Made by a program: the position numbers and the translations under genes | In this document: one piece after another, positions 8,552 through 10,782 of the stretch | Numbering within the stretch: the stretch's first letter is position 1 | Layout of the letters: each line of letters starts with the position of its first letter | Notes under the pieces: generated by a model | The model's input: only the letters and a program-made list of their open reading frames with translations | The model's database searches: none | Told to the model about the DNA's origin: nothing | Assembly (NCBI GenBank): GCA_042565725.1 | Contig: JBHORK010000006.1 | Span: 1,374 to 65,373 of the forward strand | Source: Verrucomicrobiota bacterium | GTDB taxonomy: Bacteria > Verrucomicrobiota > Kiritimatiellia > UBA8416 > JBHORK01 | DNA length: 64,000 nucleotides | Reading direction: 5' to 3'

Positions 8552-9376
8552 TTACGGCATCGTATATAAACCTGTCAGAACAAACTTTGTCAGCGAAGCC
8601 CCGCTGACATCCCCTTTGCCGATAGCCATAAGCTGTTTGTCGATAAATTCTTCAATTTTCTGCATCTTTTTACCTTGTTTTACTTCTGTTTTTGAGCTCA
8701 AGCGAATTTTTCTGCCCTTCTCATCTACAAGCCATAACCCTTGCTTATCTTTTGTGACTGTACCAAATATAATTTTAAGGGCCTTCTGGGCTTCTTTCTC
8801 GTCCACTCTCTTAACACTTGAGATCATGAACTTTCCTATATTATCCTTGCTGAGATCCACCCCTCCGCCTGTAGCTATAACTCTCGCGCCGGCCATATCC
8901 CGCAGCTTTACGCCTTCTTCTCCGGATTTCACACGATTCGTTAAATATACCTTTCTGCCCAAATCATCTACCAGGCATAAGTATGTATCGCCGTGTGTAA
9001 CCGAAACAAAAAGCCTGCCTTCCAAAGTTGTTGCGCCACCCTCTCCCTCTCCTGCTTTACTCAGGCCTGTTACAGTGAATCCTTTTAAAGACTTATCGGT
9101 ACTTGTCCCCCTGCCCGTGGCTACAACCTTCTCACCAAGAAAATCTTCCGTATTTACAGCATTTTTACCAAATCCTATCTTTCGTGGCAAACTAACTTTC
9201 CTGCCCTTATCATCCACCAGCCAGAACGAAGCACCTTCTTTTTTAACTGTGCCCTCTACAGTTGGCGACCCTTTTTTTGTCTTTTTCTTCTGTGTCTTAG
9301 AGTTTGCAGCCACAGCTCCGGCCACTAATGAAAATACAAATCCTGCAATCAATAGATTTAACAACAAACGTTTCAT
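8552..9376 (-). CDS. Secreted lysine-rich repeat protein, paralog 1 (three ~75-aa modules)
   Basis: Signal peptide MKRLLLNLLIAGFVFSLVAGAVA with the RBS AAGGAGGAG upstream. Module pattern is EGTVKKxGxxFWLVDDKGRKVxL...AVNTEDFLGxxVxATGxG. Paralogs lie at 26297-26998 and 28130-28726. Confidence 0.85.
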   Translation of the reverse strand: MKRLLLNLLIAGFVFSLVAGAVAANSKTQKKKTKKGSPTVEGTVKKEGASFWLVDDKGRKVSLPRKIGFGKNAVNTEDFLGEKVVATGRGTSTDKSLKGFTVTGLSKAGEGEGGATTLEGRLFVSVTHGDTYLCLVDDLGRKVYLTNRVKSGEEGVKLRDMAGARVIATGGGVDLSKDNIGKFMISSVKRVDEKEAQKALKIIFGTVTKDKQGLWLVDEKGRKIRLSSKTEVKQGKKMQKIEEFIDKQLMAIGKGDVSGASLTKFVLTGLYTMP

Positions 9377-9475: not shown

Positions 9476-9504
9476 TTGACAACTGCGCATTTCCGTGATA
9501 TTTG
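9476..9504 (+). promoter_or_regulatory. Possible sigma-70 promoter for the tRNA-like array
   Basis: TTGACA at 9476-9481. The -10 is weak (GATATT or TATTTG at 15-17 nt spacing). About 85 nt upstream of the first tRNA-like unit. Confidence 0.3.
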
Positions 9505-9587
9505 AGAGCTTTCTAAACTGATCCAACTTCGCTAACGGACAAATGTTTAGGATTTAGAAATTAGAATTTAGAATTTTCTTAATGATA

Positions 9588-9960
9588 GGGGTATAGCTTC
9601 CCGCTTCGCAGAACAGGCAGTTGGTCACAATTTTATGGGGGTATAGCTCACCCCGACGTCTGCGCGCCGGGATGGCAAGCAGTTGGTAGAGACGAAGTTC
9701 CCGTACTTGTTTCGGGACGTCCCGATGTCTGCGCATCGGGAAGGCCAGGGGTCTAACATTATTGTCGAACTCCTGGTGTAACTTTAAAAATAAACTATGG
9801 GGGTATAGCTCACCCCGACGTCTGCGCGCCGGGATGGCAAGCAGTTGGTAGAGACGAAGTTCCCGTACTTGTTTCGGGACGTCCCGATGTCTGCGCATCG
9901 GGAAGGCCAGGGGTCTAACATTATTGTCGAACTCCTGGTGTAACTTTAAAAATAAACTAT
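9588..9960 (+). repeat. tRNA-Ala-like pseudo-units: one partial copy (9588-9636) plus two identical 162-bp tandem units (9637-9798, 9799-9960), in register with the true tRNA
   Basis: Each unit starts GGGGGTATAGCTCA, which equals tRNA positions 1-14, and also carries AGTTGGTAGAG and AGGCCAGG. These tRNA blocks are interrupted by hairpin inserts, and the acceptor 3' strand is lost. Confidence 0.85.
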
Positions 9961-10033
9961 GGGGGTATAGCTCAGTTGGTAGAGCGTCTGAATGGCATTC
10001 AGAAGGCCAGGAGTTCGAATCTCCTTACCTCCA
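9961..10033 (+). tRNA. tRNA-Ala (anticodon GGC)
   Basis: Hand-folded 73-nt cloverleaf: acceptor GGGGGTA/TACCTCC with the G3:U70 Ala identity pair, D arm GCTC-AGTTGGTA-GAGC, anticodon arm TCTGA-ATGGCAT-TCAGA, T arm AGGAG-TTCGAAT-CTCCT, discriminator A. No encoded CCA. Confidence 0.9.
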
Positions 10034-10053
10034 CTTCACGGAGTAACCCAAAC

Positions 10054-10323
10054 ATCCTGTATTATACATACATTCTTCAAAGCATATCAACAGGCAGATT
10101 TTATGTAGGTTCATGTAACCACCTGATCGAACGTTTCCATGAACACCAGAGCAATTACAGCAAAGCAACACGCGGTCGCGGGCCATGGTGGATGCCATAT
10201 TTTGAGACTTACCCTACCCGTTCGGACGCTCAAAAACGTGAGTATGAAATCAAGAGCAAGAAGAGCAGCCGCTATATACGAACTATTATCTGGAAAGCCT
10301 TTCCTCTATTAGAATTAATGTAG
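10054..10323 (+). CDS. Stand-alone GIY-YIG nuclease-domain protein (~89 aa), cassette copy 1; start codon uncertain
   Basis: YYTYILQSISTGRFYVGSCNHLIERFHEHQSN...RGPWWMPYFETY...AQKREYEIKSKK fits the GIY-YIG (YhbQ/Slx1-like) core. There is no ATG, GTG or TTG between the tRNA and the domain. The tracked TTG start at 9976 lies inside the tRNA. Confidence 0.65.
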   Translation: MLYYTYILQSISTGRFYVGSCNHLIERFHEHQSNYSKATRGRGPWWMPYFETYPTRSDAQKREYEIKSKKSSRYIRTIIWKAFPLLELM

Positions 10324-10399
10324 AGCGGTCCGATGCGAAGACATCGGACAGGCCAGGAGTTCGAATCTCCTTACCTCCACTTCACGGAGTAACCCAAAC

Positions 10400-10669
10400 A
10401 TCCTGTATTATACATACATTCTTCAAAGCATATCAACAGGCAGATTTTATGTAGGTTCATGTAACCACCTGATCGAACGTTTCCATGAACACCAGAGCAA
10501 TTACAGCAAAGCAACACGCGGTCGCGGGCCATGGTGGATGCCATATTTTGAGACTTACCCTACCCGTTCGGACGCTCAAAAACGTGAGTATGAAATCAAG
10601 AGCAAGAAGAGCAGCCGCTATATACGAACTATTATCTGGAAAACCTTTCCTCTATTAGAATTAATGTAG
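10400..10669 (+). CDS. Stand-alone GIY-YIG nuclease-domain protein, cassette copy 2 (A to T substitution near the C-terminus); start codon uncertain
   Basis: Lies 346 bp downstream of copy 1 and has the same reading frame relative to the unit. It is missing from the ORF track because it has no canonical start. Confidence 0.6.
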   Translation: MLYYTYILQSISTGRFYVGSCNHLIERFHEHQSNYSKATRGRGPWWMPYFETYPTRSDAQKREYEIKSKKSSRYIRTIIWKTFPLLELM

Positions 10670-10726
10670 AGCGGTCCGATGCGAAGACATCGGACAGGCC
10701 AGGAGTTCGAATCTCCTTACCTCCAC

Positions 10727-10782
10727 CAATTTGCCCGTAAGGGCAAATTGCCCTCCGTAGCCTTGTGCGGAGCAGGGCTTTT
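10727..10782 (+). terminator. Two consecutive hairpins after the ancestral tRNA 3' end, the second followed by TTTT
   Basis: CAATTTGCCC-GTAA-GGGCAAATTG (10727-10750), then GCCCTCCG...CGGAGCAGGGC followed by TTTT (10750-10782). Confidence 0.5.

Follow-up and report, generated by a model that had tools for sequence, protein, structure and literature searches.

Pseudo-tRNA-Ala repeats with a conserved hairpin, probably arms of a tRNA-associated GIY-YIG cassette, in a Verrucomicrobiota bacterium

Why should a bacterial tRNA gene be preceded by perfect repeats that begin exactly as the gene does and then depart from its structure? The question is raised by a locus in a 64-kb stretch of a metagenome-assembled genome (MAG) of a Verrucomicrobiota bacterium from NCBI. 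The whole stretch is referred to here as the window, and coordinates are positions in it unless a related locus is named. Two identical 162-bp units resembling the tRNA-Ala gene stand directly upstream of that gene, and two copies of a small cassette encoding a GIY-YIG protein follow it. tRNA genes are classic landing sites of large integrase-borne elements, and tRNA-linked GIY-YIG genes are known in T4-like phages; the UPF0213/YhbQ-type branch of GIY-YIG proteins is large and uncharacterized. The present analysis reveals that the units are nonfunctional pseudo-tRNA-Ala modules. We consider it probable that a tRNA-parasitic GIY-YIG cassette has these units as its pseudo-tRNA arms on the 5' side and that recombination within tRNA homology both made and amplified them.

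The tRNA-Ala locus and its repeats

Tandem Repeats Finder reported a repeat of period 162 at 9634-9974 (2.1 copies, 100% matches), and a separate repeat search aligned unit A (9637-9798, + strand) with unit B (9799-9960, + strand) as 162-nt copies at 100% identity, as stated in a preliminary description of this DNA. Both units open with nt 1 to 14 of the tRNA, GGGGGTATAGCTCA, a 14-mer that occurs exactly in the whole window only at 9637, 9799, and 9961 (0.13 occurrences with up to two mismatches are expected by chance). The exact register of the units with the real tRNA, which had been pointed out, is true but uninformative, since the first 14 to 17 nt of the tRNA are the start of the third, partial repeat. 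Recent duplication or selection had been offered as the source of the identity; recent recombinational amplification suffices, and selection is not needed. Units A and B are duplicates of recent date and are probably neutral.

In unit A, the 14-mer is followed on the + strand by a D-loop hairpin, CCCCGACG-TCTGCG-CGCCGGGA (9651-9672), with a single A.C mismatch, by TGGCAAGC (9673-9680), and by the remainder of the D arm, AGTTGGTAGAG (9681-9691). A 28-nt stretch with a third, weaker hairpin, TCCCG..CGGGA (9692-9719), leads to a perfect hairpin, TCCCGATG-TCTGCG-CATCGGGA (9720-9741), referred to below as H, at the place of the anticodon arm. The unit is completed by the variable region and 5' T-stem strand, AGGCCAGGGGTC (9742-9753), an 11-nt insert (9754-9764), the segment TCGAACTCCTGG (9765-9776), and a tail with spacer that is noncomplementary to the 5' end (9777-9798). 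Both main hairpins lie where they had been described. H is not an interruption of a live anticodon arm; the whole arm, nt 27 to 43, is precisely replaced. The 5-bp/7-nt arm is gone, and the 28-nt stretch and an 8-bp/6-nt hairpin occupy 9692-9741 instead. The T arm had been described as split by approximately 12 nt. The insert is present, at 11 nt, but the supposed 3' half, TCGAACTCCTGG, fits better as an inverted copy of the T-arm 5' half than as a diverged 3' half, because it is the exact reverse complement of the tRNA segment CCAGGAGTTCGA.

A relic unit further upstream (9588-9636, + strand) consists of the tRNA 5' end, a decayed D-loop hairpin, and AGTTGGT, followed by a deletion up to the spacer; its loop, CGCAGA, is the exact reverse complement of TCTGCG, as had been recognized. 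A search with the hairpin 20-mer at up to three mismatches returned six matches in 64 kb, where none is expected. Every one lies at the tRNA-Ala locus; the units account for four of them, and the other two fall in the cassettes, on the opposite strand. Aligned in inverted orientation, the cassette hairpin at 10328-10349 and the unit hairpin agree at 17 of 20 positions, or at 17 of 22 when the full module is counted, the latter being the figure given previously. The view that a hairpin module had entered tRNA copies repeatedly is borne out for the D-loop and anticodon-arm positions and for both loop orientations, but not for the two units, which are one module duplicated in tandem.

The sole tRNA in the window is the real tRNA-Ala(GGC) at 9961-10033 (+ strand), called by ARAGORN at 9961-10034 and matched by the Rfam tRNA model with 71.6 bits. 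ARAGORN, run over the whole window, did not call the units at 9588-9960 as tRNA, and the Rfam tRNA covariance model gave no match there even at E values of ≤10 with permissive filters; the lone permissive Rfam match in the units was a spurious one to mir-2217 (E = 6). The acceptor stem is not formed, the tail at 9777-9798 being noncomplementary to GGGGGTA, and in the related units described below, the best 7-nt acceptor pairing is mostly 5/7, which is the random level (21 upstream and 27 downstream cases). Relative to shuffled sequences, the unit fold is only marginally better in sense (z = -2.0) and is stronger in antisense (z = -3.25), the latter as expected for DNA palindromes. The 162-bp units are nonfunctional pseudo-tRNA-Ala modules, which agrees with the earlier suggestion that they could be dead tRNA genes and with the noncomplementary acceptor 3' strand then described. 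A role as tRNA-like decoys or processing substrates, also raised at that time, is unlikely, given that the acceptor stem is kept neither in the units nor in their relatives.

On the 3' side, the real tRNA has no encoded CCA at 10033, and cassette 1 (10034-10349, + strand) begins straight after the discriminator base. This cassette contains a Shine-Dalgarno-like GGAG at 10040, an open reading frame (ORF) of 89 codons at 10054-10323, whose TAG stop codon lies inside a D-stem remnant, GTAGAGCG (10320-10327, + strand), and a hairpin, GTCCGATG-CGAAGA-CATCGGAC (10328-10349, + strand), at the anticodon-arm position. A duplicate of the tRNA 3' part (10350-10379, + strand), comprising the variable region, T arm, and acceptor 3' strand, follows and forms, with the D remnant and the hairpin, the first downstream pseudo-tRNA. 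Cassette 2 (10380-10695, + strand; ORF, 10400-10669; hairpin, 10674-10695) differs from cassette 1 by one base (98.9% identity by tblastn) and is followed by a third copy of the 3' part (10696-10728, + strand), which is followed by an encoded CCA and represents the terminus with which the tRNA gene originally ended. The repeat search returned the 3' part as three 31-nt copies at 100% identity, and Tandem Repeats Finder returned a 346-bp cassette repeat (99%) beginning right after the discriminator base. Each cassette is flanked by a 30- to 31-nt repeat of the tRNA 3' part; its length varies in relatives, and 5' copies are also present upstream.

The cassette protein is a GIY-YIG domain (Pfam PF01541, E = 3.4e-13). 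The window protein has the family-invariant residues Y17, G19, R27, and E63 and the near-invariant Y6 and H31, and its nearest solved structures are the UPF0213 proteins 1zg2 (E = 3.9e-15) and 1ywl (E = 7.8e-11), followed by SLX1 (E of approximately 3e-4). Family proteins are 83 to 90 amino acids (aa) long and consist of the catalytic domain alone, with no attached DNA-binding domain. These features place the cassette protein in the UPF0213/SLX1-like single-domain GIY-YIG branch. Neither window ORF has ATG, GTG, or TTG at the conserved N terminus; CTG (10057 and 10403) stands where relatives carry ATG, with the Shine-Dalgarno-like GGAG 13 nt 5' of it. The lack of such a start codon could reflect noncanonical initiation or incipient decay. 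ORF 1 is also in frame with a TTG within the tRNA D arm (9976), and the NCBI product is 83 aa long and starts from ATT. Three relatives (P0005, P0008, and P0013) likewise have no Met at that place, and their database ORFs read through the upstream tRNA; several database ORFs begin as such tRNA read-through (LVERLNGIQ...). No recombinase or integrase was found in the cassette, which has a single 89-codon ORF, or beside the locus in the ORF list and Pfam results.

Related loci in other genomes

Relatives were collected from two directions. Protein-seeded loci were picked blind to the hairpin, through a protein search (31 relatives) and a genome scan with the protein alignment (37 loci), and hairpin-seeded loci were picked blind to the protein, with the pattern GCGTCCCGA-N(3-30)-TCGGGAAGGTC in metagenomes (at least 120 loci). 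The close set comprises loci whose protein is at least approximately 47% identical to that of the window and that come from Planctomycetota-Verrucomicrobiota-Chlamydiota (PVC) bacteria (Verrucomicrobiota, Lentisphaerota, and Kiritimatiellia) or Acidobacteriota. At every one of these loci, the gene immediately follows, on the same strand, the 3' end of a tRNA or pseudo-tRNA, the partner tRNAs being Ala-GGC, Pro-TGG/GGG/CGG, and Lys-CTT. Pseudo-tRNA parts are present at all of them, and the hairpin is present at all except L034. Upstream units, in one to three tandem copies (L001, L009, L010, L012, L013, L016, L019, L020, and L021), run from nt 1 to 26 of the local tRNA through the hairpin, which stands for the anticodon arm, and the variable region to the 5' T-stem strand and a spacer. 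Downstream pseudo-tRNAs (L009, L011, L012, L014, L015, L017, L018, L020, L021, L022, L027, and L032) consist of a D-arm remnant and the hairpin, joined to a tRNA 3' part that has been copied faithfully. The same kind of hairpin (TCCCGA...TCGGGA, GTCCGA...TCGGAC, or TCCCGG...CCGGGA) occurs with Pro or Ala tRNAs.

At L019, from a Kiritimatiellae MAG, a D-loop hairpin insert is placed as in the window unit and is similar to it (TCCCGATG-CTGCG-CAACGGGA). When the window and L019 units were compared, the 5' end of each was identical to its own local tRNA. Because the L019 hairpin resembles that of the window while the unit 5' ends match the local tRNAs, these sequences indicate that the hairpins travel with the element and that the tRNA-derived parts are local. 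No close DNA relative of the window unit was found by blastn against all fetched loci; the architecture is common, and the sequence is not. A comparison with related genomes and a search for the hairpin elsewhere had been proposed as tests of the preliminary description. The hairpin recurs at the same tRNA positions, and the relatives show an identical architecture, in agreement with its suggestion that the units are footprints of the mobile activity of the GIY-YIG cassette.

Among the hairpin matches listed (at least 120), 85 either lie within 700 nt of a tRNA on their own strand or within 900 nt of a GIY-YIG gene or receive an odd tRNA call themselves. The other 35 include some visible pseudo-tRNAs at contig ends and some chance matches in GC-rich genes. 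A GIY-YIG ORF, detected with a hidden Markov model from the family alignment (E < 1e-5), lies within 1.5 kb of the hairpin in 44 of the 120 listed matches. With its position in all of the close relatives, this puts the nuclease gene beside tRNA genes far above chance. The partner tRNAs among the matches listed are Ala-GGC (18 loci), Met (10), Pro-CGG (8), Ile (8), Ala-TGC (6), Val-GAC (6), and others, giving more than eight identities. The pseudo-tRNAs are strictly polar. Upstream hairpins (n = 44 listed) have a median local score of 25/30 to the 5' part of the nearest real tRNA and of 8.5 to its 3' part, and downstream hairpins (n = 59 listed) have a median score of 21 to the 3' part, with many at 31 to 33/36, and of 11 to the 5' part. 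Partial copies break in the T loop in upstream units and in the D loop in downstream ones.

The hairpin itself is conserved in size and pairing. Its length is 16 to 19 nt in 67 of 78 distinct sequences, and the replaced anticodon arm is 17 nt long; a typical H has a 7-bp stem and a 3- to 4-nt loop, and cassette H sequences range from 16 to 22 nt around the core CCCGA...TCGGG. The seventh pair covaries (T-A in 36, C-G in 16, A-T in 8, and G-C in 1), and extension pairs are Watson-Crick in 91 of 93, which indicates that H behaves as a selected hairpin. The CCCGA..TCGGG hairpin is also found in D loops (window, L019, L105, and L128) and T loops (L104, L111, L116, L128, L149, L171, L178, L015, and L023), and extra hairpins are approximately 11 times denser within 400 bp of H (30, versus 14 in about five times more sequence of the same loci). 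The loop reads TCTGCG in the window units and L019 and CGCAGA in the window relic, L018, and L104, an anecdotal case of both orientations in pseudo-tRNA contexts; over all loci, a loop-flip test was not significant, with 32 reverse-complement matches versus 24 and 14 in the reverse-only and complement-only controls. A comparison of G.T with A.C mismatches in H stems, which bears on RNA- versus DNA-level selection, found two in 93 pairs, too few for use. At L098 (- strand, 1505-1581) and L115 (- strand, 2582-2658), apparently ordinary tRNA-Ala(GGC) genes have the anticodon arm TCCCG-ATGGCAT-CGGGA. Because this arm is the conserved hairpin with an open 7-nt loop and Ala-GGC is the commonest partner, H may descend from an arm of this kind with a closed loop.

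In two closely related genomes, L164 and L165, the tRNA-Phe site is filled and empty, respectively, with the same flanks, a presence/absence polymorphism at a conserved site. The filled site contains tRNA-Phe, the GIY-YIG ORF, a pseudo-tRNA-Phe with the anticodon arm TCCCGACAAGTCGGGA, the duplicated 3' part, and the flank, and the empty site contains tRNA-Phe alone and then the flank. The L164 ORF (2300-2560), in an AT-rich genome, has in-frame TGA codons, reflecting either a decayed copy or TGA read as sense. The duplicated stretch is 30 nt long in the window; in L164 it comprises the 3' part and 6 nt more, and in L092 it comprises the 3' part and a further 36 nt that include the terminator. 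This variable length fits homologous recombination and not a fixed site-specific crossover. At L111, L137, L173, and L016, the ORF lies between an upstream pseudo-tRNA and the real tRNA, and for this reason ORF-less upstream units look like the same product minus the ORF. Upstream arrays hold from one to at least five near-identical copies (72-bp units in L151, 78-bp units in L105, and 85-bp units in L092). At L164, L165, and L179, an orthologous upstream unit persists while tRNA-Ile has diverged; the unit has kept pace with the local tRNA-Ile in its 5' part, and the differences in its hairpin are compensatory, which points to gene conversion with the neighboring tRNA and to constraint on the hairpin.

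Several further observations concern single loci or more distant groups. In L015, about 500 bp of unrelated sequence (130-640) separates the upstream hairpin pseudo-tRNA-Pro from the real tRNA-Pro, and the T arm of the downstream pseudo-tRNA is replaced by TCCCGGCGAACGTCGGGA. At seven loci (L091, L109, L119, L155, L170, L175, and L177), ARAGORN calls complete hairpin pseudo-tRNAs with anticodons unsuited to the body, including an Ala-type body named Cys-GCA, "tRNA-???," and Phe-GAA; hairpin pseudo-tRNAs are likely to contaminate automatic tRNA annotations. A scan of viral contigs with a short pattern gave mainly chance matches in GC-rich coding DNA, the only real one being L060 (1-2207, an IMG/VR contig), with three hairpin pseudo-tRNA-Pro modules, a GIY-YIG ORF, and a real tRNA-Pro. 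This array adjoins a gene for a 499-aa serine recombinase on the other strand, and elements of two kinds seem to occupy a single tRNA site.

In Candidate Phyla Radiation (CPR) bacteria (L024 to L031, L040, L041, L044, and L045), distant protein relatives (35 to 49% identity) are encoded at the RNase P RNA gene. The ORF is inside a hairpin at the 5' end of that gene, in the order CCCCGTGAGATA ... ORF ... TATCTCACGGGG and then GGAGGAAAGTCCGAACA (e.g., L028, 1960-2554), and Rfam RNaseP_bact_a matches L028 at 2239-2554 with an E value of 1.2e-26, under the gathering score. The nuclease gene appears to be housed in an RNase P RNA loop, of which no account was found in the literature searched. In Chthoniobacterales (L035, 1705-2271; L036, 1896-2333; L039, 1952-1976), a related GIY-YIG gene is not beside a tRNA and is flanked by several repetitive extragenic palindromic (REP)-like hairpin repeats, CGCGTAAAAGGCTTCGCCTCACGCG, one of them inverted.

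Taken from 5' to 3', the window locus comprises a candidate promoter, the relic, the two units, the tRNA, the ORF with a 3' pseudo-tRNA twice, and terminators. The candidate promoter of the whole array (9476-9504, + strand), identified by reading, has TTGACA, a 17-nt spacer, and a weak -10 element, TATTTG; the TTGACA candidate at 9476 was not among the predictions of a promoter scan of the window. In L001, L010, and L019, a TTGACA...TATAGT-type promoter lies 5' of the first pseudo-unit and not beside the real tRNA. A 7-bp tandem repeat, TTTAGAA (4.4 copies, 9546-9576), stands between the candidate promoter and the relic. Two terminator-like hairpins close the transcription unit at 10727-10782 (+ strand), CAATTTGCCC-GTAA-GGGCAAATTG and then GCCCTCCG...CGGAGCAGGGC with TTTT, and the CCA and the terminators follow the last 3'-part copy only. 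The neighbors of the locus are a lipoprotein-like ORF, a peptidase U32 gene, and a CotH/LTD protein gene. A 274-aa signal-peptide protein (8552-9376, - strand) adjoins the array and has only two homologues among 5.8 billion proteins, both of them paralogues on the same contig (ACFLS1_01860 and ACFLS1_01870).

A recombination model and the competing explanations

From this architecture, we infer recombination or homing, involvement of the nuclease, and cotranscription. The cassette would consist of a single-domain GIY-YIG gene (UPF0213/SLX1-like, 85 to 90 aa) and a pseudo-tRNA (5' part, H, and 3' part), and homologous recombination or break repair to one side of H would link it to a resident tRNA gene. 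If the crossover, or the repair synthesis, took place in the 3' homology, the resulting order would be real tRNA, ORF, and pseudo-tRNA, with the two cassettes at 10034-10728 as such products; the 3' part of the pseudo-copy would be that of the target, and its 5' part would be foreign and overlap the ORF end. Crossover in the 5' homology would yield pseudo-tRNA, an optional ORF, and real tRNA, with the 162-bp unit as the ORF-less form; here the 5' part would be that of the target and the 3' part foreign or lost. Crossover on either side of H predicts the polarity observed. One complete tRNA would always be regenerated and survive, because H interrupts the homology midway. The direct repeats would then grow and shrink by unequal homologous recombination, giving the two identical units and the two near-identical cassettes. 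Breaks made by the nuclease in tRNA DNA would probably stimulate these repeat changes, by analogy with phage SegB, and the whole array would probably be transcribed from the tRNA promoter, which would place the units in the pre-tRNA leader. With this one model, the polarity, the two gene orders, the arrays, and the variation in repeat length can all be explained. As for H, a role as the structure-specific substrate or recognition site of the nuclease is preferred, ahead of an immunity substitution, by which the pseudo-copy would resist cleavage, and of a stabilizing RNA hairpin.

Two other schemes of element movement were rejected. Nested self-homing would give as many upstream units as downstream cassettes, which is the case in the window (2 and 2), but it fails as a rule at L105 (3 versus 1) and L092 (2 versus 1), and many loci are one-sided. 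Insertion of an H-bounded element into a resident anticodon arm is contradicted by the filled site L164, which has no upstream 5' remnant, and by the empty site L165, where the tRNA is intact.

Several points weigh against the recombination model. The nuclease activity of the family, its target site, and the transcript are predictions, and classical sequence-specific homing of the I-TevI/SegB type is not established, since the protein has no DNA-binding domain. If the intact tRNA beside the cassette is the target, it stays cleavable. The model explains neither the conservation of the hairpin core across phyla and tRNA identities nor the replacement of D loops and T loops by this core. The upstream unit kept in the diverged L164, L165, and L179 hints at some retained function, and upstream units occur without a detected GIY-YIG gene (e.g., L153, L180, L187, L195, and L196). 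In the window, the GIY-YIG copies may be inactive, because both ORFs are without an ATG, GTG, or TTG start. Searches with the peptidase U32 and the 274-aa neighbor found no close relative of the MAG, which leaves the window locus without an empty-allele comparison.

The strongest rival explanation overlaps with the recombination model and makes the hairpin the mobile agent and not the passenger. Bacteria have families of palindromic repeats, namely, the REP sequences and bacterial interspersed mosaic elements (BIMEs), associated with REP-associated tyrosine transposases (RAYTs) of the HUH/Y1 type, and the Rickettsia palindromic elements, which are inserted in genes. In like manner to REP/RAYT, H would be an autonomous palindromic DNA module and the GIY-YIG protein its cognate structure-specific nuclease; the hairpin would be written into single-stranded loops of cloverleaf-folded tRNA-gene DNA, and the breaks would lead to partial duplications. 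The same hairpin at D-loop, T-loop, and anticodon-arm positions, the excess of extra hairpins near H, the breakpoints in the T loop and D loop, the TCTGCG/CGCAGA loop in both orientations, the REP-like repeats around the distant Chthoniobacterales subfamily, and the resemblance of the protein to SLX1 all speak for it. As in REP/BIME and Rickettsia palindromes, a short conserved hairpin occurs at several positions and in both orientations (the orientation evidence being anecdotal); it is likewise tolerated within RNA-gene-derived sequence and associated with a small nuclease gene. However, the hairpin is restricted to one locus in 64 kb and not dispersed as REP sequences are, it is confined to pseudo-tRNA contexts at the loci examined, the enzyme is of the GIY-YIG type, the anticodon arm is exactly replaced and not interrupted, and loop flipping is not significant over the whole sample. 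To our knowledge, there is also no biochemical precedent for a hairpin-inserting GIY-YIG enzyme, and we regard this explanation as rather doubtful. A wider proposal, which we put forward tentatively as a possibility, is that a bare SLX1-like GIY-YIG nuclease and its cognate CCCGA/TCGGG hairpin form a minimal mobile element of a class not described before. This RAYT-REP-like pair would parasitize structured-RNA genes (tRNAs in PVC bacteria, Acidobacteriota, and Bacteroidota; RNase P RNA in CPR bacteria), act on the single-stranded cloverleaf form of the gene, and swap loops for the hairpin, and the resulting polar pseudo-tRNA arrays would be portable homology arms for spread between genomes via universally conserved tRNA sequence.

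The remaining explanations are less probable than the recombination model. Units that lie between a likely promoter and a tRNA are expected to be transcribed, and they might be a functional RNA of the tRNA operon, i.e., a pre-tRNA leader, a decoy or antitoxin-like RNA directed at the nuclease, or processing or stability signals for the GIY-YIG mRNA. The covarying stems of H and the compensatory changes in the retained unit of L164, L165, and L179 are compatible with this, and tandem noncoding repeats 5' of a small nuclease gene in one transcription unit resemble the type III toxin-antitoxin system ToxIN. But the absence of acceptor stems makes tRNA mimicry impossible, the sense fold is marginal and inferior to the antisense fold, copy number is highly variable and relics decay, and a loop in both orientations changes the RNA and not the DNA. 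The locus also differs from ToxIN. The GIY-YIG protein does not have the ToxN/AbiQ fold and GIY-YIG enzymes are DNA nucleases, the tRNA stands between the repeats and the gene, the repeats are tRNA derived, and at many loci the repeats occur in the absence of the gene or the gene in the absence of repeats upstream. An RNA function is accordingly considered unlikely.

Ordinary decay of duplicated tRNA genes, or attachment-site remnants of an integrase island with hairpins as chance palindromes, is very improbable. Williams, in 2002, reportedly described how integrase-borne islands and prophages carry partial duplications of a tRNA gene at their ends. Like such islands, the window locus has a direct repeat of the tRNA 3' part on the 3' side of the inserted element and an intact tRNA, but it has no integrase in it or beside it, the element is only about 316 bp long, the hairpin is conserved, and the repeat length is variable. 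Integrase repeats, of the 3' or the 5' part, mark the two ends of a large island, whereas here 5' partial copies lie upstream and 3' copies downstream of one intact tRNA, and at least 85 independent loci have this hairpin core at one and the same position of the tRNA. Partial tRNA genes are nevertheless common by-products of integrative elements (PMC9897764), and L060 adjoins a serine recombinase gene. An assembly artifact, with tandem copies created or miscounted by short-read metagenome assembly, is scarcely credible as an explanation, even though the window is from a MAG, perfect 162- and 346-bp repeats are hard to count with short reads, and L010 and L012 have runs of N in just such regions. 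Many independent assemblies, made in different projects, show the architecture, and a collapsed or inflated repeat would yield neither the relic nor the single-base difference between the two cassettes. Doubt about the assembly touches only the copy number and not the existence of the module.

Comparison with known systems and significance

Among the closest known parallels is SegB, a free-standing GIY-YIG homing endonuclease encoded in the tRNA gene cluster of phages T4 and T6 (PMC2330249; PMC13096335). SegB cuts within tRNA genes, and its breaks drive the UvsX/UvsY-dependent tandem amplification of a 718-bp unit of tRNA-Tyr and segB, which uses homology of the tRNA 5' end with the segB 3' end (PMC13096335). 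The association of SegB with tRNAs spans many isotypes (PMC2330249; PMC13096335). As in SegB, the GIY-YIG gene of the cassette sits among tRNA genes. The preferred SegB motif, RAWTSGAAC, seems to fit the complement of the T-loop box GTTCGAATC. In the cassette family, the T loop is where upstream units end, and it is disrupted in the window unit. However, SegB is of phage origin and has a DNA-binding part at its C terminus, whereas the cassette protein is a bare 89-aa catalytic domain encoded in bacterial chromosomes. SegB also amplifies whole tRNAs, and hairpin-substituted pseudo-tRNAs are not described for it. The cassette would be akin to free-standing nuclease genes that exploit tRNA genes, without the DNA-binding domain of classical homing endonucleases and with cleavage predicted.

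Known sources of partial tRNA genes include integrating elements and CRISPR spacers (PMC9897764), and homing endonuclease genes occur within structured-RNA genes, e.g., as rRNA insertions in CPR bacteria (PMC11270868). In the latter, as in the cassette family, a selfish nuclease gene lands at a highly conserved RNA gene. In contrast to these insertions, the cassette gene stands beside an intact tRNA and in or next to a sacrificed pseudo-copy; a tRNA cannot host a 300-nt insert. In the openly searchable literature, which does not cover subscription-only papers, no account was found of hairpin-substituted pseudo-tRNAs or their polarity, or of tRNA-linked UPF0213-type single-domain GIY-YIG genes. 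The cassette family is apparently widespread and undescribed.

An element of approximately 0.3 kb without a recombinase appears to use tRNA genes through homology alone, and it leaves a recognizable signature, i.e., pseudo-tRNAs in which a conserved hairpin has taken over the anticodon-arm position. If the recombination model is true, it would provide a biological context for UPF0213/YhbQ-type GIY-YIG proteins and would explain a class of odd or "undetermined" tRNA predictions. It would also represent a compact nuclease-plus-hairpin system that is directly testable in vitro, and the principle known from SegB, nuclease-driven amplification at tRNA genes, would reach the bacterial chromosomes of several phyla.

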